From Minisyncoccota bacterium (lineage in GTDB: Bacteria > Patescibacteriota > Minisyncoccia > Phycocordibacterales > PALSA-1337): a stretch of DNA of 63,684 bases. A model generated the notes under the pieces. The model did no database searches, was not told the DNA's origin, and saw only the letters and a program-made list of their open reading frames with translations. The stretch spans positions 1 through 63,684 of the forward strand of contig JBAYIX010000004.1 in assembly GCA_041665385.1 (NCBI GenBank), written 5' to 3'. Both the position numbers and the translations under genes were made by a program. This document shows positions 3,863 through 63,684 of this stretch, in pieces (the first letter of the stretch is position 1; every line of letters begins with the position of its first letter).

Positions 3863-3876
3863 TGATAGAAGAAATT

Positions 3877-3977
3877 CCAAATTCCAAGCACCAAGTTCCA
3901 AATAAATTCCAATATTCAAAAGTGAATTTGGAATTTTATATTTGGTGCTTATTTGGAGCTTGGTGCTTGGAATTTGG
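3877..3977. repeat. Long imperfect hairpin (element A), with 28-nt outer arms at 3877-3904 / 3950-3977
   Basis: The arms are CCAAATTCCAAGCACCAAGTTCCAAATA and TATTTGGAGCTTGGTGCTTGGAATTTGG: 27 Watson-Crick pairs plus one T:G at 3896/3958. An inner stem AATTCCAAtATTC / GAATTTGGAATT is also present. The arms are built from heptad-like NNNCCAA units. Confidence 0.7.
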
Positions 3978-4001
3978 TGCTTCTTACCTTATACTAATCC
4001 C

Positions 4002-5441
4002 ATGAAATACCTTCCAACTATTGGCCTCGAGATCCACGCCGAACTCAAAACATTTTCGAAGATGTTCTGCTCCTGCAAGAATGATCCTGACGAAGAAAAA
4101 CCGAACTCAAATGTCTGCCCCATTTGTCTCGGTCACCCGGGCACTCTGCCAGTTCTGAACCATGCCGCCATAAAAAAAGTTTTGATGATCGGTACTGCGG
4201 TCGGAGGAACTCATGCGGACTTTACCGAGTGGGACAGAAAGAATTATTTTTATCCCGACATACCAAAGGGCTACCAGATCAGCCAATACAAGTTCCCTCT
4301 CATTTCCGAAGGCATGCTCGCCGGAGTCGAGCTCGAAAGGATCCACCTCGAGGAGGATACCGCGCAGTCCACTCACGACACTCACAAAAATTCCCTTATC
4401 AATTTCAACCGCTCGGGTGTTCCCCTCATGGAGCTCGTCACCAAGCCCGTCATCCATGATGCCGAGACAGCAGTCACCTTTGCAAAAGAGCTCCGGCTCC
4501 TGCTCCGCTACCTCGACGCCGGCGACGCAAATATGGAAAAGGGCGAAATGCGTGTCGAAGCAAATATTTCTGTCGCATCTGAAGCAGATACAGAGGCAGG
4601 AAAGTTTGGCACCAAAACTGAAGTCAAAAACCTGAACTCATTCCGGTCTGTCGAGGGCGCCGTAGCATATGAGATCGAAAGACAGATCGCGCTCATTGAA
4701 GCAGGCGGCAAGGTAGTTCAGGAAACTCGCGGCTGGGATGATGTGAAGCGGGAAACATATTTGCAACGTGTAAAAGAAAGCTCCCATGACTATCGCTACT
4801 TCCCTGACCCAGATCTGCCCAAGATGAAGATTTCGGAGATACCAGGGTTCGATGTGAAGACACTGGAGAATAGTCTTCCGGAATTGCCATGGGTAAAGCG
4901 AGACAGGTACAAAAACAATTTTGGCATGACGGAAAAAGAGGTTGCTGTTTTTGTCGATAACCCGGAGCTGGCACGTTACTTTGAAGAGGTCATCAGCCCT
5001 GACCAAAATATGGTCAAGCTATCTACAAACTACATCTTGACTGACTACCTCGGGGCACTAAAGAAGGCAGGAGTTACTAATATAGGCACAATACCTGCGA
5101 CAGCTTTCGCTGATATCATCAAACTAATCTCTTCTGGAGACATCTCTTCACGCGGTGCAAAAGAACTCATAGCTGTCATCATCGCCGAACCGAGAGGTCG
5201 GACCTCTCCCCCCTCCCCTCGAGCCCTCGCCGAAAAGCACAATCTCATCCAAAAGAGCAATTCTGCAGATCTGGAACCCATAATTGACTCTATAATCGCC
5301 AAACACGCCTCCGTCGTCACCGAATACAAGACAGGCAAGGTCACTTCCCTGCAATTCCTCATCGGTCAGGTCATGAAAGAAAGTAAGGGTTCTGCAAATC
5401 CTGGTGTGGTAAAGGAAATGTTAATAAAAAAGCTCAACTAG
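4002..5441 (+). CDS. gatB: Aspartyl/glutamyl-tRNA(Asn/Gln) amidotransferase subunit B
   Basis: Canonical N-terminus MKYLPTIGLEIHAELK, cysteine motif CSCKND...CPICLGHPGTLPVLN, and C-terminal GatB/YqeY-like tail FLIGQVMKESKGSANP. The track ORF starts at TTG 3942 inside hairpin A; ATG 4002 restores the conserved N-terminus. Confidence 0.93.
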   Translation: MKYLPTIGLEIHAELKTFSKMFCSCKNDPDEEKPNSNVCPICLGHPGTLPVLNHAAIKKVLMIGTAVGGTHADFTEWDRKNYFYPDIPKGYQISQYKFPLISEGMLAGVELERIHLEEDTAQSTHDTHKNSLINFNRSGVPLMELVTKPVIHDAETAVTFAKELRLLLRYLDAGDANMEKGEMRVEANISVASEADTEAGKFGTKTEVKNLNSFRSVEGAVAYEIERQIALIEAGGKVVQETRGWDDVKRETYLQRVKESSHDYRYFPDPDLPKMKISEIPGFDVKTLENSLPELPWVKRDRYKNNFGMTEKEVAVFVDNPELARYFEEVISPDQNMVKLSTNYILTDYLGALKKAGVTNIGTIPATAFADIIKLISSGDISSRGAKELIAVIIAEPRGRTSPPSPRALAEKHNLIQKSNSADLEPIIDSIIAKHASVVTEYKTGKVTSLQFLIGQVMKESKGSANPGVVKEMLIKKLN

Positions 5442-5450
5442 TACGATCTG

Positions 5451-5610
5451 ACTCGAACTTGGTGAATCATGTTTTCGAGCATTCCCGCAATGCGACCTGA
5501 GTCCCGACAAATTGCCCGTATCTGCTGAATCCCTGGAAGCAGATACGGTAGCAATTTGGAGTGGGCGACCTTGCGGGAATGCGAGGAAACATGATTCACC
5601 AAGTTCGAGT
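5451..5610 (+). repeat. 160-nt compound hairpin (element B) between gatB and obg, with 40-nt outer arms
   Basis: The 5451-5490 arm pairs with 5571-5610: 37 of 40 positions are Watson-Crick. The exceptions are one T:G (5475/5586) and a tandem G:A/A:G (5477-5478/5583-5584). Inner stems are CAAATTGC/GCAATTTG and CCGTATCTGCT/AGCAGATACGG. Confidence 0.7.
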
Positions 5611-5662
5611 CCTATACTACTATCCATAGAAATCAATGGTGCACTGTGCTAATGTATGAATC

Positions 5663-6631: not shown

Positions 6632-7694
6632 TTTCTGTATTTACTGACTTGTCTGAAAATGAGTGTCTATATATATCTAGGAGAGCAAATAGAATAGCGA
6701 GAATGATAGGCCCCATCACAAAACCGACAGGCCCAAATGTCGCTATACCTCCCAAAACAGAGATGAGGATGAGTAGAGGGTGAATGTTTATACCGCGATT
6801 TACCAGGTATGGACCTAGCAGGTTGTCTATGAGGCTCACAGCAAGGAATCCCCATATAGTAAGCCCGATAGCATATCCGTAGCCGCTAAATATGGCGAGA
6901 TATATGATGCCCGGCACTATTATGAGACTGGTTCCAAAGCCGGGTATAAATGCCGCAACTGCCGCTATACTGCCCCACAGTGCCGCCGCTGGTATGCCAA
7001 ACATGAAGAATCCTATTCCGGTGAGTATGCCTTGGATCACACAGACTATGACCGTACCAGCAAATACGGAGCGTATTGCATTTTCGAATGTCTTGGTCAG
7101 ATGCTCATCATGCTTGTCTACGAGCGGGCTCCAGGACATGAACTGTTTTTTTATTGTCTCCCCGTCTCGCAAGAAATAAAAGACAGCGAGCAAAAAGACA
7201 AAAGAATTTATGGCGACCGTCGCGAAACTGGTAAAGATACTATCGAGATGAGAAAAAACCCATTCTATGGCACCCTTCAGATATTCCGTGACATTGAGCG
7301 AATCGAAGGTGTATGAAGGAAATGCATCGAAAAGTAAGGCCGAGATACTGGACGAGAGACCATTCAGGGCATCGATGATCTGAGATCTCTGCGACTCGTC
7401 TATAAGTGACGCATACATAGACTGTATCTCCACATATATCCTGCCGACGATGAGGAACAGCGGCACGAGAACTATGATGACGATGATGCAGACAGTGAGG
7501 AATGCAGCTATGTTTGGCTTCCAAGGGCCGTTACCGAGGGCGGCGAGAATTCTACGATAAATGGGAAAAGAAAGTATTGCTCCGGCGGCGGCAAGTATTA
7601 CGGGTGTTAGAAATGGCAGGAATATGACAACAGAGGCTATGACGGCGCAGAGGAGGAGGATAAAGAAGAAATAATAAGGGATTCGAGAGATCAT
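6615..7694 (-). CDS. AI-2E family transporter (PerM/UPF0118-like permease)
   Basis: 359-aa polytopic membrane protein with the family-typical layout and segments such as AAFIPGFGTSLIIVPGIIYL and LLILISVLGGIATFGPVGFVMGP. It converges on obg and overlaps it by 17 nt. Confidence 0.7.
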   Translation of the reverse strand: MISRIPYYFFFILLLCAVIASVVIFLPFLTPVILAAAGAILSFPIYRRILAALGNGPWKPNIAAFLTVCIIVIIVLVPLFLIVGRIYVEIQSMYASLIDESQRSQIIDALNGLSSSISALLFDAFPSYTFDSLNVTEYLKGAIEWVFSHLDSIFTSFATVAINSFVFLLAVFYFLRDGETIKKQFMSWSPLVDKHDEHLTKTFENAIRSVFAGTVIVCVIQGILTGIGFFMFGIPAAALWGSIAAVAAFIPGFGTSLIIVPGIIYLAIFSGYGYAIGLTIWGFLAVSLIDNLLGPYLVNRGINIHPLLILISVLGGIATFGPVGFVMGPIILAILFALLDIYRHSFSDKSVNTEIIQVK

Positions 7695-7848
7695 GATAAT
7701 GTGAGATTTATTTTGACATCACGACTATTGATATTGATGTTACCAGTCTAGCACACAATAAAATAGTGTCACTATTTAGTTGTTAAGTTTTTTGCGTGGT
7801 CTTTCATTTATGCCGCCCAACCACCCTTCGGTTGCAAAGAGGCCCATT

Positions 7849-7975
7849 ATTATAGCACGCACGCTCTTATTTTTGGTCAAAAACATGGCTTTACTGAGCC
7901 GTATTTTTACATGCAAAAAATATGGCTCAACAGCAACATAAAAAGGGGTAAAAATAAGAGCGTGCGTGCTATAAT
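7849..7975. repeat. Hairpin element C: perfect 26-bp arms with a 75-nt loop
   Basis: ATTATAGCACGCACGCTCTTATTTTT (7849-7874) is the exact reverse complement of 7950-7975. An imperfect extension GCAAAGAGG / CCCCCTTTGC lies outside the arms. Confidence 0.75.
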
Positions 7976-8103
7976 TCCACCCCCCTTTGCCGGCGACATG
8001 GTCACTCCCCGGCTAATGACAAAAAAACCGCACTGTCTACTTATGATTAACCCCCTAATAGTCCTCATTTCATAGACTCCAAAACCCCAAGATTCAGAAC
8101 GTA

Positions 8104-11171: not shown

Positions 11172-12215
11172 TTAATTGACCCACTCAACTTCACCCTCTA
11201 CCTCTATGCCGGTCTTGTCTTTTACTTCATCGATCAGCTGACGCGCGAGATTTACCACTTCTTCGGACTTGGCACCCGGCTTTGCCACGATGACCAGAGC
11301 TTGCGTAAAATGAGTGCAAACATTGCCCACACATACACCTTTTTTATTACAGATCTTATCTAGGATCCAACCCAAAGGCACCTTTACGAGGCCGCTTTTT
11401 TCTTTGTAGCCAGGTAAATCCGGATATTTTTGTTTTAATTCCGCATAGTGAACTTCAGTAATAACCGGATTTTTAAAAAAAGATCCGGCATTGCCCCAGA
11501 GCTTCCAGTCCGGCAGTTTATTCCAACGTATTTCTATCACTGCTTTTCGTACCTCCTTCAGATCCGGAACTATTTCTGGGTGTGTTTCGAAATATACCTT
11601 GAGATCACGATATGAAATATTGACCCGGCCATTCTTACGGAGACGGAAACAAACTGAGGTGATGATATAGTAGTCCTTCTTTTGCTTGAACAAGCTAGAA
11701 CGATAATTGAATCCGCAATCCCTGCCCGACATACTTATGAATGTGTGCGACTTGGTATCATATGCACGCACAGAATACACTGTCTCTGCTGCCTCCATGC
11801 CATATGCTCCGATATTCTGTACTGGCGCGGCACCGACAGTACCAGGTACAGCGGAAAGATTTTCTATACCATACAGGCCTTTGTCCACCATCTTTTCCAC
11901 AAAACTATCCCACAGCTCCCCCGCCGCCGCAGTAACATAGACATACTCTTCGCCTACTGGGTCGGGTTCGAATCTTTCTTTTTCAATCTTTATACCCTTC
12001 ATCTCCATCTTTATGACCAAGCCTTCGAAGCCACTGTCAGAAAAAAGCACATTTGACCCTTCACCGAGGACAAATATCTTTTGTTTGTTTTCGGTGGCGA
12101 ACTTCACGGCACTTTCGATATCTTTCTCATTTTTGACCGAACAAAAAAACTTGGCCGGTCCGCCGAGTCGGAATGTTGTATGTTCGCTCAAAGGTATGTT
12201 TGTGAGGATTTTCAT
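11172..12215 (-). CDS. murB: UDP-N-acetylenolpyruvoylglucosamine reductase
   Basis: FAD-binding N-domain LSEHTTFRLGGPAKFF...VLGEGSNVLF and the MurB C-terminal motif NAGSFFKNP. ATG 12215 (MKILTNIPL) is preferred over the longer track start at 12299. Confidence 0.9.
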   Translation of the reverse strand: MKILTNIPLSEHTTFRLGGPAKFFCSVKNEKDIESAVKFATENKQKIFVLGEGSNVLFSDSGFEGLVIKMEMKGIKIEKERFEPDPVGEEYVYVTAAAGELWDSFVEKMVDKGLYGIENLSAVPGTVGAAPVQNIGAYGMEAAETVYSVRAYDTKSHTFISMSGRDCGFNYRSSLFKQKKDYYIITSVCFRLRKNGRVNISYRDLKVYFETHPEIVPDLKEVRKAVIEIRWNKLPDWKLWGNAGSFFKNPVITEVHYAELKQKYPDLPGYKEKSGLVKVPLGWILDKICNKKGVCVGNVCTHFTQALVIVAKPGAKSEEVVNLARQLIDEVKDKTGIEVEGEVEWVN

Positions 12216-12456
12216 TTGAGAGATCAAATTATACACAAATAAGACCGATGTGAAAACAAACCATGATAGATATTCATAAATCGCGCAAATTGTTGGCAAG
12301 CGGGTGCGAGCTCCAAAAAATATTGTCTAAATATATGTGAGTACAGCCGCCTGCCAACACTGTGCACGATCATATCCACAGATAATTATACCACCTGCTT
12401 TCCATATGGTATACTTGTACATGTGAGTGTTTGAGCGAGCAAGTTCCAATATGTCT

Positions 12457-12535: not shown

Positions 12536-14746
12536 TTATTTTAGAACCTCAGCCACTGCCGCGTCTATCTGCGCTTTGAATTGCGGGTTATCTTTCTCTA
12601 TGGATCGCAGTGTTGCCACGGCGGCATTTTTCTGACCAGCTGCATACTGCACCTGAGCCATGTGGACCTTCAGGTTGACATCTGTTGGCTTCTTTTCTAC
12701 GAGACTGCTATATATTGCCAAGCTCTTGCCATACGCCTTTGCCGCGGCATATACCTGCGCCGCCTGTTCGGTCGTGAATATATCGGGTCGATCAGGGAAA
12801 ATCTGCTTTGCCTTTGCTTCTTCTCCAGAAAGCACTAGGCCGAGAGCGTACGCCGACTGCGCAATGCCATAGCTGGGATCAGATTCATACGCTTCTTTTA
12901 GGAGGGCGAGGCCTTTTTCCACATTACCACTGTTTATGTAGTTGTTTGCGAGCTCGAAACTCACACTTTGCTTCCTCGGTGTGAGGGCGTGAGCCTGCTC
13001 CAAAATGACCTGGGCCAGTTGCACCTGACCGGCAGCATTCATGAACTGTCCACCCAGGACATACATGCGCGCATCCTTGGGTGCGGAAGCTATCTGAGCT
13101 TGTATGGCATTCACCGCCTCCGTGAACAGGAGTTGTTTTGCGGGACCAGGGACTTGCTGATTACCGAGGACTCCGTTCGTACAAGAAACTATCTGTTCGC
13201 GGGTTTCCTGATATGCGACATATGCGCCAGTAGCAAAGACTTTCTGGAAGAATGCGGCATCTGCTTGTGACGTATTGCAAGCTTGCAGTGCTGTGATGAG
13301 ACGAGTGTTTGCTATGATAACCCGCACATTGAAGAAGTAAAGTCCGGCAATGAGAGCGACTATGCATACAGGTATTACCACATATTCTACGATATCAAGA
13401 CTAAAATCTTTTTTCGATCCGAGCACGGGTACGGGCTTGCCTTTCCTTTCCACATACAAAGCTGAGCTCACAAAAGCCAGGATGGCAAAGAATGCCACAT
13501 AACTCGCAAGGTTGTCGAAGACAAAGATATTGTGGACAGCATATGCCGCACCGAGGCCAGTGAGCACGCTCTTTTGCGCCACTCCGAGATGAGATTTCCA
13601 TATACCTCGAAATAGGAGGAAATAAAGCGAAAGATAAGCGATGAGACCTACAGACCCCGCCGCAACCAACCAGTCTAAGTAGACATTGTGGGCCCGATCG
13701 AACCATTGTTCCTGTGTCCACATTGCCGGGTTGTAGTTCGCATTGAAAATATAATTAAAATTTTCCTGTCCCCAACCCAAAACCGGACGCTGTGTGAAGC
13801 CTGTGAGAGCCATCGGCCAGATGTAGCCGCGAGCCTGAGTTTTTGCGTCATTTATAGATATGGATGCGAGACGTCTCAGAGCTTCGTGATTTTGCACAAA
13901 TGTGCTTTGCCTATTGGCCCAGAATATTCCAGTAGCGAGAACGATAGCGATTATTATGCCACCACATATCATCCTAGAATTCTTGGAGCCTTGCTTTGCA
14001 AGTACTGCGTACAGAAACAGTGTGAGCATAGTGCCACCTACTAGACCTATCATAGTGCCACGAGTTGCAGTTTCAAAGAGGATAAATGCAAAGAGTACGG
14101 AAAGTGCGCCATAGAGCCACTGGAGTTGCTTCGATGCGCTCTTTTTTCTGGAATCAAAGAGCATGTAGACGGCTATACCCACATTCATGAGCATGTATAC
14201 GGCAAGGTATGCGGCATTACCGAGAGATGCATCTATACGGCTCGAACCCTGGTGTATTTCCGCCCCGCCGAAGAACTGTACGAGAGCGTATATGGATACT
14301 ATGATGCCACCAACGATGAATGTATTCATCCAAGCTCTCCACCATTTCATAGACTCTTCATTGGAAGCGTGGGAAGAATTGAAACCAAAAAGGCCTGAAG
14401 TGGTGATATAGAACATCCAGAGATGAGCTATAGTTATCCAGCCTTCCATACGTTCAAAGTTTGACCAGAGACTACGAAGAGGGTTCACACCGAGCAAGTC
14501 TGCGGCGAGAACGATCAGAGCAAACAAAGTGACGGCAATAGTCATAGCATTCAGTCGTGGACGATATCTGGCATCTATGAAAGCGAGGACTATGTAGCTC
14601 GCGAAAGCGATCTCAACCAAGATACGGAAATAGAATGCCTTACCAGTAATAAATGGGAAAAAGTAACTATTTGCGACTATTAACGGGAAAAAAGGTATTA
14701 GGAACAGTGCGGCGAGCGCAATGAAGCGCGATGTTGATTTGATCAT
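12536..14746 (-). CDS. O-antigen ligase (Wzy_C)-like polytopic membrane domain fused to a C-terminal TPR-repeat domain
   Basis: The membrane part carries ETATRGTMIGLVGG, GWGQENF and AHNVYLDWLVAAGSVGL, typical of O-antigen ligase/polymerase-like proteins. The last ~250 aa are TPR-like Ala/Tyr/Leu-rich repeats. The start is ATG 14746 (MIKSTSRF). Confidence 0.7.
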   Translation of the reverse strand: MIKSTSRFIALAALFLIPFFPLIVANSYFFPFITGKAFYFRILVEIAFASYIVLAFIDARYRPRLNAMTIAVTLFALIVLAADLLGVNPLRSLWSNFERMEGWITIAHLWMFYITTSGLFGFNSSHASNEESMKWWRAWMNTFIVGGIIVSIYALVQFFGGAEIHQGSSRIDASLGNAAYLAVYMLMNVGIAVYMLFDSRKKSASKQLQWLYGALSVLFAFILFETATRGTMIGLVGGTMLTLFLYAVLAKQGSKNSRMICGGIIIAIVLATGIFWANRQSTFVQNHEALRRLASISINDAKTQARGYIWPMALTGFTQRPVLGWGQENFNYIFNANYNPAMWTQEQWFDRAHNVYLDWLVAAGSVGLIAYLSLYFLLFRGIWKSHLGVAQKSVLTGLGAAYAVHNIFVFDNLASYVAFFAILAFVSSALYVERKGKPVPVLGSKKDFSLDIVEYVVIPVCIVALIAGLYFFNVRVIIANTRLITALQACNTSQADAAFFQKVFATGAYVAYQETREQIVSCTNGVLGNQQVPGPAKQLLFTEAVNAIQAQIASAPKDARMYVLGGQFMNAAGQVQLAQVILEQAHALTPRKQSVSFELANNYINSGNVEKGLALLKEAYESDPSYGIAQSAYALGLVLSGEEAKAKQIFPDRPDIFTTEQAAQVYAAAKAYGKSLAIYSSLVEKKPTDVNLKVHMAQVQYAAGQKNAAVATLRSIEKDNPQFKAQIDAAVAEVLK

Positions 14747-14829
14747 GGTGTGAAAACTATAACATATGGGCAAAAGCGCGCCAATGTGGTTCGGGATTGA
14801 TGACCGGAGTAATAGTCAGGCAAGATGGA

Positions 14830-14935
14830 GCCCCTAGCACAGCAAGCTCTTTCTCCGGATTTGAAATAGTTGTGCAGGGTCCGAGTATTGATAATACTTC
14901 ACAAATCCGGAGAAGGAGCGTGCTGTGCTAGGGGC
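14830..14935. repeat. Nested-palindrome element D (subfamily 1 core, + orientation)
   Basis: The arms are 14830-14863 / 14902-14935, with 32 of 34 Watson-Crick pairs, one T:G and one A:G. The core at 14855-14910 is CCGGATTTGAAATAGTTGTGCAGGGTCCGAGTATTGATAATACTTCACAAATCCGG. Confidence 0.8.
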
Positions 14936-14971
14936 TAGGTGCCCAACCAATTTGTATTTCATTCAAAAAAG

Positions 14972-15000
14972 TTGACAATATCCATATTTCTGTTATAAAT
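14972..15000 (+). promoter_or_regulatory. Near-consensus sigma70-type promoter for the 15075 gene
   Basis: TTGACA (14972-14977), a 16-nt spacer, then extended -10 TGtTATAAA (14991-14999). A Shine-Dalgarno AAGGTGA (15064-15070) lies just before ATG 15075. Confidence 0.5.
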
Positions 15001-15074
15001 AAAGTGTAGCAGTTCAGCTTCGTCGTGCTCTTGCACAAGACGATGCTTTTGAAAACCGAACAAAAGGTGAAAAG

Positions 15075-15716
15075 ATGAATACTTCAGAGCGGATTAACAT
15101 TGAAAATCTCCACTCCCCATATCTCACGAAAGAAACTAACCTCGAACATTGGATCGTGAAGACAGAGGAGTTTTATCGGAGGCGTCTCAAACACACAGTC
15201 GATCTCCGGCGAATGTTCGCTTTCCCGGAAAGACTGCAGTGGGCGAGTGCCATTCCTGTTTACGATCCAGGTACCCTGGACAACAATGCAGCAGTACGCC
15301 TTCTTGGTAAACAACTAGTAGAGACTGACCTCGATTTCGATGTCATGAGGTGCAAAAACAGCAAGGCAACCGGAACTCCGACACTCCACCTCATCGAAAA
15401 TTCTGTCGAACCGACTTCGTGGACACGTCCTCCCAGGGGTGCATCGCCAAGTCATCTTTTGGAAACTGAGGAAAATTTTTTGGGATTACGTGGATGGGCT
15501 ATCGCATACGCAGTGTACAATTACGTTATCACTCACGGTATCATGGACCCCACTACACTGACCTATTTCCCCGCGGACGCCTTGTCAAACGGGAAAATCC
15601 CCGGCGGCAATGGATATTCCTCACAAAAACACGTGAGGTTCACTCTTTCCGAACCTGATGAGGTATATATTTACAATGGTGCCCGCGTGGCACTGTCCGT
15701 TCCCCGGCGGCCCTAA
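15075..15716 (+). CDS. Hypothetical protein (213 aa), no recognisable domain
   Basis: Clean ORF with a strong SD and promoter. It is a plus-strand gene flanked on both sides by minus-strand genes (12536-14746 upstream, the glycosylation run from 15902 downstream). It is flanked by repeat elements D and E. Confidence 0.6.
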   Translation: MNTSERINIENLHSPYLTKETNLEHWIVKTEEFYRRRLKHTVDLRRMFAFPERLQWASAIPVYDPGTLDNNAAVRLLGKQLVETDLDFDVMRCKNSKATGTPTLHLIENSVEPTSWTRPPRGASPSHLLETEENFLGLRGWAIAYAVYNYVITHGIMDPTTLTYFPADALSNGKIPGGNGYSSQKHVRFTLSEPDEVYIYNGARVALSVPRRP

Positions 15717-15794
15717 AGTTCCTTTCGCTAAGAGCCCCATGGCACAGAGTTTCCTCTGTGCCATTTTTTGTGTGAGCCTTTGTTGGTCACCTTG

Positions 15795-15901
15795 CCCCCG
15801 AGACTGCACACGGCATTTTGCCGGATTTGCGAGCTCTTATGATTACCCGGATCATGCACAACTTCTCAAATCCGGCAAAATGCCGTGTGCAGTCTCGGGG
15901 G
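15795..15901. repeat. Nested-palindrome element E (subfamily 2 core, - orientation)
   Basis: Perfect 35-bp arms at 15795-15829 / 15867-15901 (CCCCCGAGACTGCACACGGCATTTTGCCGGATTTG). The interior is CGAGCTCTTATGATTACCCGGATCATGCACAACTTCT. The right arm abuts the stop codon at 15902-15904. Confidence 0.85.
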
Positions 15902-17158
15902 CTACACTCTACCGCTCTTCACAAAAAAGTAAACATTGATGAGCAACATCACCACCCACGATACTCCGTTTTCCACCACCGCCCCCGCGAGCCCATAACT
16001 ATAGATGAGCACCACCGATAGAAATATCGTCACAATATTACTCAGCACCGTGAGCTTGTAAAGTGTCACCGTATCCCTCTTCACTTGAAAATATGAACTG
16101 AAAAGCGCTATTCCCGGCACAGTAGCAAGCCCAAGCATATATACCTGCGAATACCAGACCGCGTCCAAATACTTCGGAAAGAAAATAGCATAGATATACG
16201 GCGCAGCAAAATAATAGACCGCAACACCAAGGATCGTCACAGCTGTCAGACGAAAGACCTTATCGAGCACACTAGCGCGGAGTAGGCTCGGATCCGCACT
16301 CGACATCTTTGGCAGAGCAATATTAAAAAGGTTTTTATAGCTTCCCTTCACCTGCTCCGGTATAGCAATAGCAAAAGCATAGATCGCGAGCTCTGCCGCG
16401 CCCAAGAAATGAAATACTAGAACCTTGTCGAGCTGATTTGCGAGCGTACCAAAGAAGTTCATATAGCTCACATGCTTGCCATACGATATCATATCCGGAT
16501 CTGTAACATTGTTTGGCTGATATTTCCGAATAATATAAAAATAGAATAGACTTGCAAATATCGCACTTGAAATAAAATTTACTGCTACGAGCACTACGGC
16601 ATCATGTATGAATATCGCGGTAACTATGAGGAGTAGTGTCGTACCTATCTGTGACGACATTGCAAACACTGTCGATCTTTTGAAATCCTTCCTACCGGAA
16701 AAAAGTGAATTCGACAGACTGTAGGCATTTATGAGGGGCATACATGTACCTGCGATGATCAATGCGATACCAAGTCCGATATTTTCTACGAAGAAATAGT
16801 ACAGTGCCATAACAAGCGCCACTGCCCACGGGAACACACCCCAGCGTAGACTGGTCCGCACTGCATCTCGGAGCACACCCTCCTTCCCCGCCGCGACAGC
16901 CTGTATGACGGCAGTTCCCATACCCGCCAAAGACAGCGCGCCCAGTATGCTCACCGCAGAGAGTATGAACTTGTAGTTACCATACACTTCGCGTGGCAAG
17001 TATGCCGCGAAAACAACTGCGGAGGCAAAAACCAAAGCCAGAGAAATAGCCTGACCAAAGGAAGTCCAAAATCCGGATACAACCGCATAGAGCATATCGG
17101 TCTTGAAGTACCTTTCGCTCAGACGCAAGAGATCATATGTTTTTTGCTTTATAGACAT
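15902..17158 (-). CDS. Wzx-like oligosaccharide/polysaccharide flippase (MOP superfamily)
   Basis: 418 aa with ~12 predicted TM segments. The N-terminus (LRLSERYFKTDMLYAVVSGFWTSFGQAISL) and overall architecture are typical of polysaccharide biosynthesis flippases. Confidence 0.65.
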   Translation of the reverse strand: MSIKQKTYDLLRLSERYFKTDMLYAVVSGFWTSFGQAISLALVFASAVVFAAYLPREVYGNYKFILSAVSILGALSLAGMGTAVIQAVAAGKEGVLRDAVRTSLRWGVFPWAVALVMALYYFFVENIGLGIALIIAGTCMPLINAYSLSNSLFSGRKDFKRSTVFAMSSQIGTTLLLIVTAIFIHDAVVLVAVNFISSAIFASLFYFYIIRKYQPNNVTDPDMISYGKHVSYMNFFGTLANQLDKVLVFHFLGAAELAIYAFAIAIPEQVKGSYKNLFNIALPKMSSADPSLLRASVLDKVFRLTAVTILGVAVYYFAAPYIYAIFFPKYLDAVWYSQVYMLGLATVPGIALFSSYFQVKRDTVTLYKLTVLSNIVTIFLSVVLIYSYGLAGAVVENGVSWVVMLLINVYFFVKSGRV

Positions 17159-17901
17159 TACTTTAGTCGGAGCACGTATATCATCTCATGGAACAGACCA
17201 GGGATGATATGACGAAATACAATGTCCGCCAATGGTTGAAGTGTACGACCCAGCACCGGAATCGCCCAGAGCTTTGGCACAAAGAGACCGTTCGGAATTT
17301 TCTTTATGATATGAAAATGCTTCCGAAGCATGATCTCATACTTGGCATACGACACATAGTCTTTGCGATACTCCGCATCTCGAAGCTTGAGCCTGGCATG
17401 TATAGAGTCATGTGCCGCCAGACTGGTCATATATATGCCATCTTTTTTTATATACTGTTTCAAAAAAGCCATTTCACCTTCATATATTGCCGGTGCTAAG
17501 TAGCCTAGACCGAGAGCGATATCAAATGAACCTTCCATGCCCGCATTGGGAAAAACTTGGTTATCTTTTACAAAAAAAGAAATTTTTGGATCAGTCGTGA
17601 TACGCTTCGCTGTCTCGATCATATCTATGGAAATATCCGTACCGACTAGAGCAGAAAAGTTTTCCGGAAATCTTTGCGAGACTGCACGTGTCATTACTCC
17701 ATCTGCACAGGCAATATCTATGAGTTTCATATCCTTTTTTCCACTCACATATTTTGCCAATAAACGAAGTGTTATTGCTAACCTATTCTGGAAAAAGTAT
17801 TGGGTATAACTTTTGGGCGCACCGAGATAGCGCTTCCTTGAATAGGATTCGCTTTCTTTGTTATAGAAGGAAATTATTTCGGTTTCTCTAGGATTTGGCA
17901 T
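17158..17901 (-). CDS. Class I SAM-dependent methyltransferase
   Basis: Motif I-like KLIDIACADGVMT followed by an acidic residue (VGTDIS). It overlaps the downstream gene by 1 nt. Confidence 0.65.
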   Translation of the reverse strand: MPNPRETEIISFYNKESESYSRKRYLGAPKSYTQYFFQNRLAITLRLLAKYVSGKKDMKLIDIACADGVMTRAVSQRFPENFSALVGTDISIDMIETAKRITTDPKISFFVKDNQVFPNAGMEGSFDIALGLGYLAPAIYEGEMAFLKQYIKKDGIYMTSLAAHDSIHARLKLRDAEYRKDYVSYAKYEIMLRKHFHIIKKIPNGLFVPKLWAIPVLGRTLQPLADIVFRHIIPGLFHEMIYVLRLK

Positions 17902-17915
17902 GAATGTAGACGCAC

Positions 17916-18027
17916 GTCATGAAAGGTAATTGTGGGCTTTTTGTATGATTTGTGAAGTATTATCAATACTCGGACCCTGCACAACTATTTCAAATTATAC
18001 AAAAAGCCTGCAATTACCTTTCATGAC
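17916..18027. repeat. Nested-palindrome element F (subfamily 1 core, - orientation)
   Basis: The arms are 17916-17946 / 17997-18027: 29 Watson-Crick pairs plus T:G and G:T. The 38-nt interior is the exact reverse complement of element D's interior. The right arm covers the stop and last 4 codons of the 18014 gene. Confidence 0.85.
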
Positions 18028-19204
18028 CATTGTACCATTTGAGCAAATATTTGATACGCTCGTCAAGACTGAAATATTTTTGCACACGCTCGCGTCCGGC
18101 AGCACCAAAGGCCACTGCTTTCGCCTCATCTTTTAGAAATTCGACCATACGGCCTGCGACTTCGCTAGTATTATTCGGGTCTACTACATAGCCGGTCTCT
18201 CCGTGTGCAACGACTTCCTTTGTACCACCATATTTCGTGCCTACGACCGGCTTGCCCGCCGCCATAGCCTCCAGATTGATAGTTGGAAACGGGTCGAGAT
18301 ACAAAGATAGCACGGTTACCAACCGAACAGACAATATTGCACGCTCCATGTCCTCATGACTGAGCCAGCCTAGAAACTTTATACTTTTTTCTATATCGAG
18401 TTCCCTTGCCCGATCATGGATCTTTTTAGCAATATCAGTATCAGCTTTTCCCGCAATGAGGAGAGTTGTATCGGGTACATCTTTCAAAATTTCTTTCATG
18501 GCGGCGAGTGCTACGAAGGCACCCTTTGCTCCCGAAAGTCGCCCGCCGAATAGAACAAAATGATCACTGACAGAGGTCGCCGTGTAAGCGCTCTCAGTAA
18601 TTGGAGCAATGCCATTATGCATCGTCACAACATTTTCAATTCCATTTCTTTGTAGAGCCGTGCGCAAAGCATCACTCACAGCAAACACCCGATAAACATT
18701 TTTTAAATATCTCTTTATTACTATATTACGAAATGGATTATAGCTGGTACGGTATTCCATAAAATCCTTCCACGCAGAATGCGGACGATCTTCTTCCGAG
18801 ATCTTACCGTAAGCAAGGGTCATAGCATCATGGGCAGTCAAAAACACTCTGGCACCGCTTTCTTTTGCCAACTTGAGCGCATAGTAAGAAATATGCTCGT
18901 GGATATTGTGTGCATGGACGACGTCGGGATGTAGATCTCGTACTATTTTTCGAAGCTCTTTTATCAGAGGCTTATTATTGAGACTTTTATACGCCCGCAC
19001 ACGCCGAGGGTAATTGGAATATATCCGATGAATAATAATTCCATTTTCCTCAAAAGTACCAACTTCTTCCTTTTTTTGTACAGAGGTCACAACTACGACT
19101 TCATGACCGAGGGTCCGGAGAACCAGAGCATCACCGTGCGCTATTATGCCCGCACCGCCCTGGGCATGTGGTGGAAAGTCATCGGATAGGATGAGAATGC
19201 GCAT
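18014..19204 (-). CDS. Glycosyltransferase family 4 (GT-B fold)
   Basis: MRILILSDDFPPHAQGGAGI N-terminus and a C-terminal E-x7-E-type region FPTINLEAMAAGKPVVGTKYGGTKEVV. Confidence 0.8.
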   Translation of the reverse strand: MRILILSDDFPPHAQGGAGIIAHGDALVLRTLGHEVVVVTSVQKKEEVGTFEENGIIIHRIYSNYPRRVRAYKSLNNKPLIKELRKIVRDLHPDVVHAHNIHEHISYYALKLAKESGARVFLTAHDAMTLAYGKISEEDRPHSAWKDFMEYRTSYNPFRNIVIKRYLKNVYRVFAVSDALRTALQRNGIENVVTMHNGIAPITESAYTATSVSDHFVLFGGRLSGAKGAFVALAAMKEILKDVPDTTLLIAGKADTDIAKKIHDRARELDIEKSIKFLGWLSHEDMERAILSVRLVTVLSLYLDPFPTINLEAMAAGKPVVGTKYGGTKEVVAHGETGYVVDPNNTSEVAGRMVEFLKDEAKAVAFGAAGRERVQKYFSLDERIKYLLKWYNGHER

Positions 19205-59802: not shown

Positions 59803-59810
59803 TTGTGTAG

Positions 59811-59919
59811 CACAAAAGGGCTCATAACAAACTTTTTCCGGATTTGAGAAGTTGTGCAAAGTTCGGGTAATCATAACAGCTCGCAAATCCGGAAAAAGTT
59901 TGTTATGAGCCCTTTTGTG
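59811..59919. repeat. Nested-palindrome element H (subfamily 2 core, + orientation)
   Basis: Perfect 36-bp arms at 59811-59846 / 59884-59919 (CACAAAAGGGCTCATAACAAACTTTTTCCGGATTTG). The interior is AGAAGTTGTGCAAAGTTCGGGTAATCATAACAGCTCG. It lies between convergent genes. Confidence 0.85.
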
Positions 59920-59926
59920 CCCCGCC

Positions 59927-63510: not shown

Positions 63511-63614
63511 GAGACAAGTATATCATGGAAAATAAAAAGTGATAAAATTCTTCAATAATTGCGTCGTCCCCCAGCCCCACATTCTCCTTCCGAATCCTGC
63601 GGAACTCGGCACCA

Positions 63615-63679
63615 CGAAATTGCAAGACATTTTGACGTTCAGTCATCAGCAACCGACGTCAAAATGTCTAGCAATTTCG
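63615..63679. repeat. Hairpin element I (24-bp arms, 17-nt loop) at the window edge
   Basis: CGAAATTGCAAGACATTTTGACGT (63615-63638) pairs with ACGTCAAAATGTCTAGCAATTTCG (63656-63679); 23 of 24 positions are complementary. It may extend beyond the window. Confidence 0.65.
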
Positions 63680-63684
63680 GGTAC

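Follow-up and report, generated by a model that had tools for sequence, protein, structure and literature searches.

Intergenic hairpins in a Paceibacteria genome: a probable repeat family in which the loop is conserved and the stems co-evolve

Four long hairpins, here called D, E, F and H, occur in a stretch of 63,684 nucleotides from a Minisyncoccota bacterium (GenBank assembly GCA_041665385.1, contig JBAYIX010000004.1, positions 1 to 63,684; hereafter the window). Together with three further copies on other contigs, they are, in our judgement with somewhat better than even confidence, a lineage-specific intergenic hairpin repeat family of about 110-125 nt in one Paceibacteria genome, in which the whole hairpin is the repeat unit, the stems co-evolve and the loop is sequence-specific. 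An earlier note, made from the letters of the window alone, had offered two explanations, either a small element that targets or creates long palindromes, or a hairpin family in which only pairing is selected in the stem. The second fits best, given the compensatory changes between the arms of E and those of a coreless relative at 63613-63681, while the first survives as a minority reading whose main support is the identical cores and dissimilar arms of D and F.

The hairpins were located by an inverted-repeat scan, and their stems were extended by a script anchored on the common core (Table 1). That the four loci have in common a core of around 47-49 nt (ATTTG...CAAAT), as the earlier note had claimed, is borne out by the sequence, by the scan and by a hidden Markov model (HMM) of the core. 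In the window, the HMM recovers exactly D, E, F and H at E-values of 5e-13 to 9e-17, with the next match at 0.4, and the bounded pattern GGATTTG..CAAATCC occurs three times, compared with 0.02 occurrences expected. Folded as RNA, the hairpins have energies between -46 and -84 kcal/mol (z-scores versus shuffles between -8 and -15). The arms are, as described before, perfect or nearly so within a copy, having no mismatches in E and H, two in D and three in F.

The loop is asymmetric and conserved over 37-38 nt, and the core follows the consensus ATTTG-A(R)(A)AAGTTGTGCA-NNNT-YCGGGTAATCATAA-N-AGCTCG-CAAAT. The five H-type copies differ from one another at about 9 of the 47 positions of the core, and the D/F subtype departs from the consensus at about 12 positions. 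E reads as the reverse complement of the H type with five substitutions in 55 nt, in agreement with the earlier description; the cores of D and E, which belong to different subtypes, are 75% identical. The identity already noticed between the interiors of D and F, in opposite orientations, was found to span 49 of 49 nt (ATTTG...CAAATC) and to end right at ATTTG/CAAATC. This conserved loop is probably the binding site of a trans-acting protein, which could be a mobility enzyme or an RNA- or DNA-binding factor.

Several other readings of the loop were tried and rejected. A conserved internal helix (AGUUGU/AYAGCU) shows no covariation and is unsupported. A micro-open reading frame on the anti-core strand (MITR[IT][LM]HNF...) lacks a start codon in the D/F subtype, has no ribosome-binding site and runs with its tail into the variable arm. 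Checks by eye for a hammerhead (CUGAUGA/GAAA) or twister ribozyme core, a k-turn or box C/D, a tRNA T-loop and an anti-Shine-Dalgarno match revealed nothing conserved across the subtypes, and a similar check for rolling-circle nick sites revealed only a CTTGATA in D that is not kept in the H type.

Table 1. Hairpins of the family, their flanking motifs and two further hairpins of the window. Arm lengths count the ATTTG/CAAAT end of the core.
Feature	Coordinates	Strand	Description
Hairpin D	14829..14936	+	arms 14829-14863 / 14902-14936, 35 nt, 2 mismatches, loop 38 nt
Hairpin D core	ATTTG(14859)..CAAAT(14906)		D/F subtype
Hairpin E	15794..15902	- (core strand)	H subtype; arms 15794-15829 / 15867-15902, 36 nt, 0 mismatches, loop 37 nt
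Hairpin F	17916..18027	- (core strand)	arms 17916-17952 / 17991-18027, 37 nt, 3 transition mismatches, loop 38 nt
Hairpin H	59810..59920	+	arms 59810-59846 / 59884-59920, 37 nt, 0 mismatches, loop 37 nt
3' flank motif AGGTGCCCAACCAA	14937..14950	+	immediately 3' of hairpin D; 12/14 match to the flank after E on E's strand
3' flank motif AAGGTGACCAACAAA	15779..15793	-	follows hairpin E; counterpart of the D flank motif
Copy L009	1970-2089 of L009		Ga0172379 contig; core-pattern metagenome scan
Copy in L010	2656-2778 of L010		Ga0172379 contig
Copy in L010, diverged core	2161-2283 of L010		detected as inverted repeat
Coreless paralog of E ('I9')	63613..63681	not set	26-bp stem, 17-nt loop, T-run/A-run layout as in the family
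Hairpin 'I5'	7834..7990	not set	41-nt arms, 83% pairing, T-run/A-run, different 75-nt loop

The core recurs outside the window, as the earlier note had proposed checking. One metagenome scan with the core pattern returned two Ga0172379 contigs, L009 and L010, which carry one copy and two copies (L010a and L010b), respectively; L010 has a counterpart, L020, in the same European Nucleotide Archive (ENA) sample as the window (ERZ27249449), a sample common to all three contigs. The family thus numbers seven copies in about 90 kb, with no degenerate copies detected. The tetranucleotide profiles of L009 and L020 correlate with that of the window at 0.89-0.97, the level found within the window itself, compared with 0.64-0.80 for relatives, and by sample and composition L009 and L010/L020 very probably belong to the same Paceibacteria genome or species as the window. 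Homologs of the neighbouring Mur ligase and TypA carry Patescibacteria or Paceibacteria names, and it is from these names that the host was assigned. A scan of one genome per species with the strict pattern GGATTTG..GTTGTGCA..CAAATCC gave eight matches, all attributable to chance and none with flanking palindromes; this pattern misses the GAATTTG/CAATTTG forms of the L009 and L010 copies, so that the scan does not establish absence from other species. A relaxed form of the core pattern would be GTTGTGCA N4 YCGRGTAWTNATAA. There was no match of the core pattern among viral contigs, and the core was not found in the relatives retrieved via TypA (L016-L019) or via the Mur ligase (L026-L028).

The arms had been described as unrelated in sequence between copies, which is only partly true. 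The arms of D and F are indeed dissimilar, save for a 10/13 match around a T-run, and most pairs of copies are only weakly alike; outside the D/E pair, the outer arm ends all differ between copies. However, in the 5' arm of all seven copies a 4-7 nt T-run stands 4-7 nt ahead of ATTTG, and the 3' arm has a matching A-run, a polarity that is equal on both strands because the arms are palindromic. Arm length is also uniform, at 35-43 nt across all copies. The summed pairwise local similarity of the outer arm parts is 199, above both the 163.5 +/- 7.7 obtained with random genome segments and the 167 +/- 6 obtained with shuffles. D and E have in common the outer arm ends AGCCCC/GGGGC, an inner CCGG and most of a 14-nt 3' flank (Table 1), and the arms of E resemble those of its coreless paralog. 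No internal hairpins (mirrored terminators) were found in the family arms, a layout that does hold for the 7834-7990 loop and for positions 1381-1521 of the relative L018.

The most direct evidence on how the arms evolve comes from E and the coreless hairpin at 63613-63681. Their arms match at 20 of 27 aligned positions (about 74%), so that seven of 27 differ per arm, and six of these seven differences fall on the same base pairs and are compensatory, where 1.8 would be expected if the arms were independent (p ~1.6e-4 by a hypergeometric estimate). In addition, a 2-nt indel is mirrored on both arms. The arms are therefore inherited, and the two arms of one hairpin change together. The stems of E, H and L009, which have no mismatches over 36-41 bp despite several core differences among the three, also indicate paired change. 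The 17 nt that form the loop of this coreless paralog can, though only weakly, be read as what a deletion left of the core.

With these observations in mind, one may propose how a hairpin repeat family of this kind would be maintained. The whole hairpin would be the unit that duplicates, built of a variable outer stem, a semi-conserved inner stem (T-run, 4-7 nt, ATTTG) and a conserved loop. After duplication, a change on one arm would be matched on the other, most likely via intra-palindrome template switching or gene conversion in replication, and selection for a stable hairpin would reinforce the pairing. One study reportedly finds that template switching creates and maintains perfect RNA hairpin stems (PMC8794818). 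Since the arms would change together after each duplication, stems would drift between copies and yet stay near-perfectly paired within each copy, while the loop would stay conserved because it is the sequence-specific part. Loops may also be exchanged or homogenised between copies, as suggested by D and F.

D and F lie 3 kb apart in inverted orientation, and their cores agree even at all of the roughly nine positions that vary among H-type copies. E and the coreless hairpin present the converse case, having arms in common and not the loop. Identical cores combined with dissimilar arms in D and F imply that core and stem have partly separate histories. An old duplication of the whole hairpin would have let the free core positions diverge, and none has diverged, so that either a core-only exchange or a replacement of arms is needed. 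In our best reading, at least one loop-only exchange has taken place in the family.

Among the described repeat classes, the hairpins are best read as a variant of bacterial stem-loop repeats rather than as a new class of element. The whole window has no Rfam match at the gathering threshold, and relaxed E-value scans of D and H return only generic miRNA-precursor hairpins, far below threshold, in line with the statement in the earlier note that this is not a recognised repeat class. Its further statement that the architecture is the opposite of miniature inverted-repeat transposable elements (MITEs) proved too strong, as the arm features in common put the hairpins nearer to repeats of the whole-hairpin kind, REPIN-like or MITE-like. 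Repetitive extragenic palindromic (REP) and REPIN elements are likewise dispersed intergenic hairpins, mostly placed just past genes, that have no target-site duplication and duplicate as a whole, and REPs have been proposed to serve as regulators in the 3'UTR and as terminators. In REPINs, however, it is the stem (the REP, with its GTAG/CGTC tag) that is conserved and the loop that varies, whereas here the loop is conserved and the stem drifts; moreover, REP palindromes are 20-40 nt long and imperfect, while the present stems are 35-43 bp long and nearly perfect. Only two copies, E and H, have GTAG next to them, and the TAG of the one at E belongs to a stop codon.

MITEs of the Correia, RUP and BOX types are also short, non-coding, multi-copy hairpins that can provide stop codons or terminators at gene ends. 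They possess conserved terminal inverted repeats and direct target-site duplications, and the family here has neither: outer arm ends are common to D and E alone, and direct repeats at the hairpin borders amount to 0-2 nt exact. Integron attC sites resemble the family as imperfect palindromes at gene 3' ends that form single-strand hairpins and are conserved in only part of the structure, although in attC the outer R and L boxes are conserved and the centre varies, the reverse of what we observe. The core GTTGTGC departs from the attC box (RYYYAAC ... GTTRRRY) at position 5 of GTTRRRY, and the window has no integrase and no cassette array, the neighbours of the hairpins being housekeeping genes, with Mur ligase, TypA, Hsp20, tRNA-Phe and glycosylation genes among them. 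Protein-binding RNA hairpins, such as iron-responsive elements, histone 3' stem-loops and phage operator hairpins, have a fixed loop and a covarying stem of 5-10 bp. The family is like them in the fixed loop sequence, in the stem kept as pairing and in its untranslated-region placement, with much longer stems of 35-43 bp.

All seven copies are intergenic, and five of the seven mark the end of a gene or operon for which no other terminator is present. E begins on the final base of a flippase gene's TAG stop (gene 15902..17158, -), the end of a minus-strand gene run of about 35 kb, and the convergent gene for a 213-aa protein has a canonical terminator of its own at 15739-15764. F almost fills the gap 17902-18013 between a GT4 glycosyltransferase gene (18014..19204, -) and a co-directional methyltransferase gene, and its arm 17991-18027 covers the final four codons of the GT4 gene along with the TAA stop; the C-terminus of this gene is of normal length compared with homologs. 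H takes up all but 7 and 6 nt, at its two margins, of the 124 nt that separate the convergent Mur-ligase gene (stop 59802) from a gene for a 63-aa LysW-type zinc-ribbon protein (stop 59927). Outside the window, the L009 copy lies 6 nt after tRNA-Phe and 30 nt after an Hsp20 gene, L010a lies 22 nt past the TypA stop and immediately before the TTGACA box of the next gene's promoter, and L010b comes after a canonical terminator. As for D, a Wzy_C gene and the 213-aa gene have their divergent promoters on either side of it. A U-tract of T6-7, like that of a terminator, follows the hairpin in L009 (GTTTTTTC follows) and in L010a (T7 on both sides).

By analogy with REPs, which one report describes as 3'UTR regulators (bioRxiv 10.64898/2026.03.23.713779), the copies that close genes or operons probably serve as RNA hairpins at 3' ends, functioning in termination, insulation or protection from 3' exonucleases. 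The co-directional run that E closes (~15900-51400, -) consists nearly entirely of genes for glycosyltransferases, methyltransferases and sugar-modifying enzymes, with a flippase, and is an unusually large surface-glycan cluster for the small genome of a bacterium from the Candidate Phyla Radiation (CPR).

Relatives were compared at the TypA site. In L018 and L019, whose TypA is 83% identical, a conserved promoter (TTTGACAAT...) comes immediately after the TypA stop, whereas in the host genome 22 nt and the entire 123-nt hairpin stand between the two. The whole hairpin, including both arms, is thus absent at the orthologous site of L018. The difference is an insertion or deletion of the whole hairpin, and at this evolutionary distance the site is not a clean empty one. 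The comparison of empty sites that the earlier note had called for has accordingly been answered in part, as both arms are missing at this site of L018/L019 but no clean empty site was found. L016 and L017 (88% identical) have a short A+T-rich hairpin at the TypA site, and TTTTATCGCGT at the syntenic place in L016 weakly resembles TTTTTTCGCGT, which consists of the outer end of the arm in L010a and one further base. Thin as it is, the resemblance hints that an outer arm may extend into flanking DNA. For the window copies no empty sites were found, the glycosyltransferase homologs being at most 49% identical and the non-self Mur ligase homologs at most 68%; the species stands isolated in the databases. 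The syntenic relative L026 (Mur ligase 67% identical) has three extra genes at the H site: at 11506-12315, the Mur ligase gene is separated from the LysW-type zinc-ribbon gene by a 75-aa gene and a toxin-antitoxin pair of the YoeB type.

A number of observations weigh against the repeat-family reading as we have put it. The D/F pair, whose cores are identical at 49 of 49 positions while the arms are largely dissimilar, is not explained by simple duplication of a whole hairpin. For most pairs of copies the similarity between arms is weak and could partly reflect common composition. Target-site duplications are absent, and the ~90 kb examined revealed no gene for a transposase, a reverse transcriptase or a recombinase. 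All copies come from one species, so that selection is inseparable from recent spread. As for the 3'-end role, no U-tract follows D, E, F or H, which leaves no expectation of canonical intrinsic termination at these four, and a 3'-end role makes no sense for D at its position between divergent promoters.

A doubtful alternative, and the one that makes most of the D/F pair, is that only the 47-49 nt core moves, as a mobile loop cassette, either into the loops of existing hairpins, or anywhere, with fold-back synthesis from the short terminal repeat making the arms. The halt of the D/F identity exactly at ATTTG/CAAATC is what such a cassette would leave. Also in keeping with it are, in the same genome, the coreless paralog of E and long hairpins with other loops (7834-7990 and 5439-5622). 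Local origin of the arms is suggested by F, whose outer arm contains native-looking C-terminal codons of the glycosyltransferase gene, by the resemblance of the outer end of the L010a right arm (TTTTTTTCGCG, then T) to the L016 sequence described above, and by the fact that arms end at stop codons or promoters, as palindromes growing until a constraint is reached would do. However, locally made arms should be unrelated, and yet the T-run/A-run is universal, D and E share ends and flank, and the arms of E and its coreless paralog are alike. The uniform arm length of 35-43 nt is also unexpected for such a cassette, no copy retains leftover loop sequence beside the core, and empty long palindromes with short loops were not found except at 63613-63681, where the loop can be read as a remnant of core deletion.

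No evident enzyme partner for the repeat family or for a mobile core was seen among the genes examined. The Pfam lists for the genes of the window and of L020, and for ten scanned open reading frames (ORFs) of L009 and L010, contain no transposase, recombinase, reverse transcriptase or Nop-domain protein, and no Y1/HUH domain of the kind found in the REP-associated tyrosine transposase (RAYT). One candidate considered was the ORF of 213 aa at 15075-15716 (+), which lies between D and E, inverted relative to each other like REPs around a RAYT gene. Its family has 82 representatives, at most 43% identical and mostly about 260 aa long with an extra N-terminal segment. The protein has no Pfam, NCBIfam or PDB-sequence match and no HxH motif, and its AlphaFold model, although confident (pLDDT 92.7), has no significant fold match in the PDB, so that with neither family, motif nor fold to sustain it the ORF was rejected as a RAYT-like enzyme. 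Judging from the model, the protein may have a new fold. The gene itself lies inside the cell-surface glycosylation cluster.

It is unlikely, though it would be of greater novelty, that the core is a new kind of mobile loop cassette that moves without known transposition signatures, from scaffold to scaffold or by fold-back priming from a 5-bp terminal repeat, or else that each hairpin gives a guide-like RNA, present in single copy, of a CPR system not yet described, with specificity conferred by the copy-specific stem.

We consider it distinctly unlikely that the hairpins are ordinary long bidirectional terminators that happen to have a loop in common, with no mobility involved. The placement of five copies at ends without another terminator is in keeping with this idea, as are the T-runs after L009 and L010a, which have the G+C-rich hairpin and U-tract of an intrinsic terminator, and the presence in related genomes of long intergenic palindromes of other sequence types. 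However, independent origins cannot account for a conserved 37-nt loop at seven unlinked sites. The four window copies do not have the hairpin-plus-U-tract arrangement, D lies between divergent promoters and L010b after a canonical terminator, and canonical terminators are present elsewhere in this genome.

Even less probable is that the hairpins are genes for trans-acting structured RNAs, with the loop as a protein-binding scaffold and the copy-specific stems as the source of specificity, on the pattern of TIGR units, bridge RNAs or hairpin small-RNA precursors. TIGR-Tas is the closest published layout, with variable palindromic stems, a similar interior length and a source in the same bacterial group. 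According to the published descriptions (PMC12045711; bioRxiv 10.64898/2026.09.09.750476), TIGR arrays of CPR bacteria and phages consist of stem-loops in which variable palindromic stems surround an interior with conserved motifs. Each unit comprises a stem, a box C (C[ACGT]A) followed after 9 nt by a box D (TG/CG), a loop of at most 15 nt, a second 14-nt interval and a stem. The units are tandem, next to or inside a Nop-domain tas gene, and bear two variable spacers of 8-12 nt between box C and box D (same sources). The conserved interior between variable palindromic stems, and its length of 37-38 nt, equal to 14 + 9 + 14, are in accord with such a unit. However, inspection by eye of both strands did not reveal the box C/box D motif with its 9-nt spacer, the nearly invariant interior holds no spacers, the copies are single and dispersed rather than arrayed, no Nop domain appears in the Pfam lists of the window genes, and the F arm overlaps coding sequence.

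Sequence matches of the arms also give no support to a role as spacers or guides. They have no matches beyond chance in the rest of the ~90 kb of genome sequence examined. When six 20-21-mers from the arms were compared with viral contigs, five had no match and one, from an L009 arm, matched exactly over 21 nt, which was judged to be chance (an estimated ~0.1 chance matches per probe). The match (L009 2054-2074 to L021 1772-1792, IMGVR_UViG_3300024239_000353) lies just upstream of a promoter-like viral site, is in a GC-rich virus whose tetranucleotide correlation with the host is about 0.07, and is probably fortuitous.

That the hairpins are products of assembly or amplification (snap-back chimeras) has a negligible probability, since, although short-read assemblers often break or mis-join at inverted repeats and several contigs end in these hairpins, the same loci recur in ENA, Joint Genome Institute (JGI) and Logan assemblies of different samples, and a conserved asymmetric core at seven loci is unlike the product of chimera formation. 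The window loci are part of the ENA contig ERZ27249449:k141_133626. On the question of chimeras raised in the earlier note, an independent JGI assembly, L012, is 99.9% identical and contains the complete F hairpin. The Logan contigs of SRR6484324 hold the same loci, with breaks inside E, F and H and at two further hairpins. In all three assemblies of the species, contigs end inside or beside long hairpins (L013, L015, L025, L029-L031), and all three radC-bearing contigs end at the hairpin 63613-63681. The copy number of such hairpins is probably underestimated.

Other long palindromes are present in the window and in relatives. The hairpin at 7834-7990 has an arm resembling those of D and L010a (TAGCAC-GCACGCTCTT), and is possibly a related scaffold, its membership of the family being uncertain. 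Its loop holds a terminator-like hairpin and a degenerate mirror copy; this hairpin and L018 1381-1521 are composite palindromes, in which a terminator-like hairpin with a T-run faces its degenerate mirror copy, and both look like inverted duplications seeded at T-run/A-run microhomology. Between gatB and obg, at 5439-5622, lies an imperfect hairpin of about 184 nt with 52-nt arms, 87% pairing and an inner 19-bp hairpin, at which a Logan contig begins. It has no Rfam match even at E <= 1; a further repeat scaffold and a structured RNA, for instance 6S RNA, are both conceivable identities. Intergenic palindromes of tandem heptamer-like units and their inverted copies (for example AAATTCC.../...GGAATTT and GAATTTA.../...TAAATTC) occur at 3869-3985 of the window and at 7166-7293, 13456-13595 and 15272-15343 of L026. 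It thus seems that long palindromes between genes characterise the clade, with sequence families that are specific to lineages.

Repeat families have hardly been described in CPR bacteria or Patescibacteria, and the one reported here divides its constraints in an unusual manner, the loop being constrained in sequence and the stem keeping pairing alone. The pair formed by E and its coreless paralog provides a clean natural case of concerted, compensatory evolution of a stem of 30-40 bp. The hairpins also have a practical consequence, as they break short-read assemblies and, with all three assemblies of the species ending at one such hairpin, limit contiguity, which is of consequence for metagenome-assembled genomes of such organisms. 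Should the core alone be what moves, the mechanism of mobility would be new. If the loop proves to be the recognition site of a mobility protein or an RNA-binding protein, the family would indicate that this little-known phylum has a new protein-nucleic-acid system.

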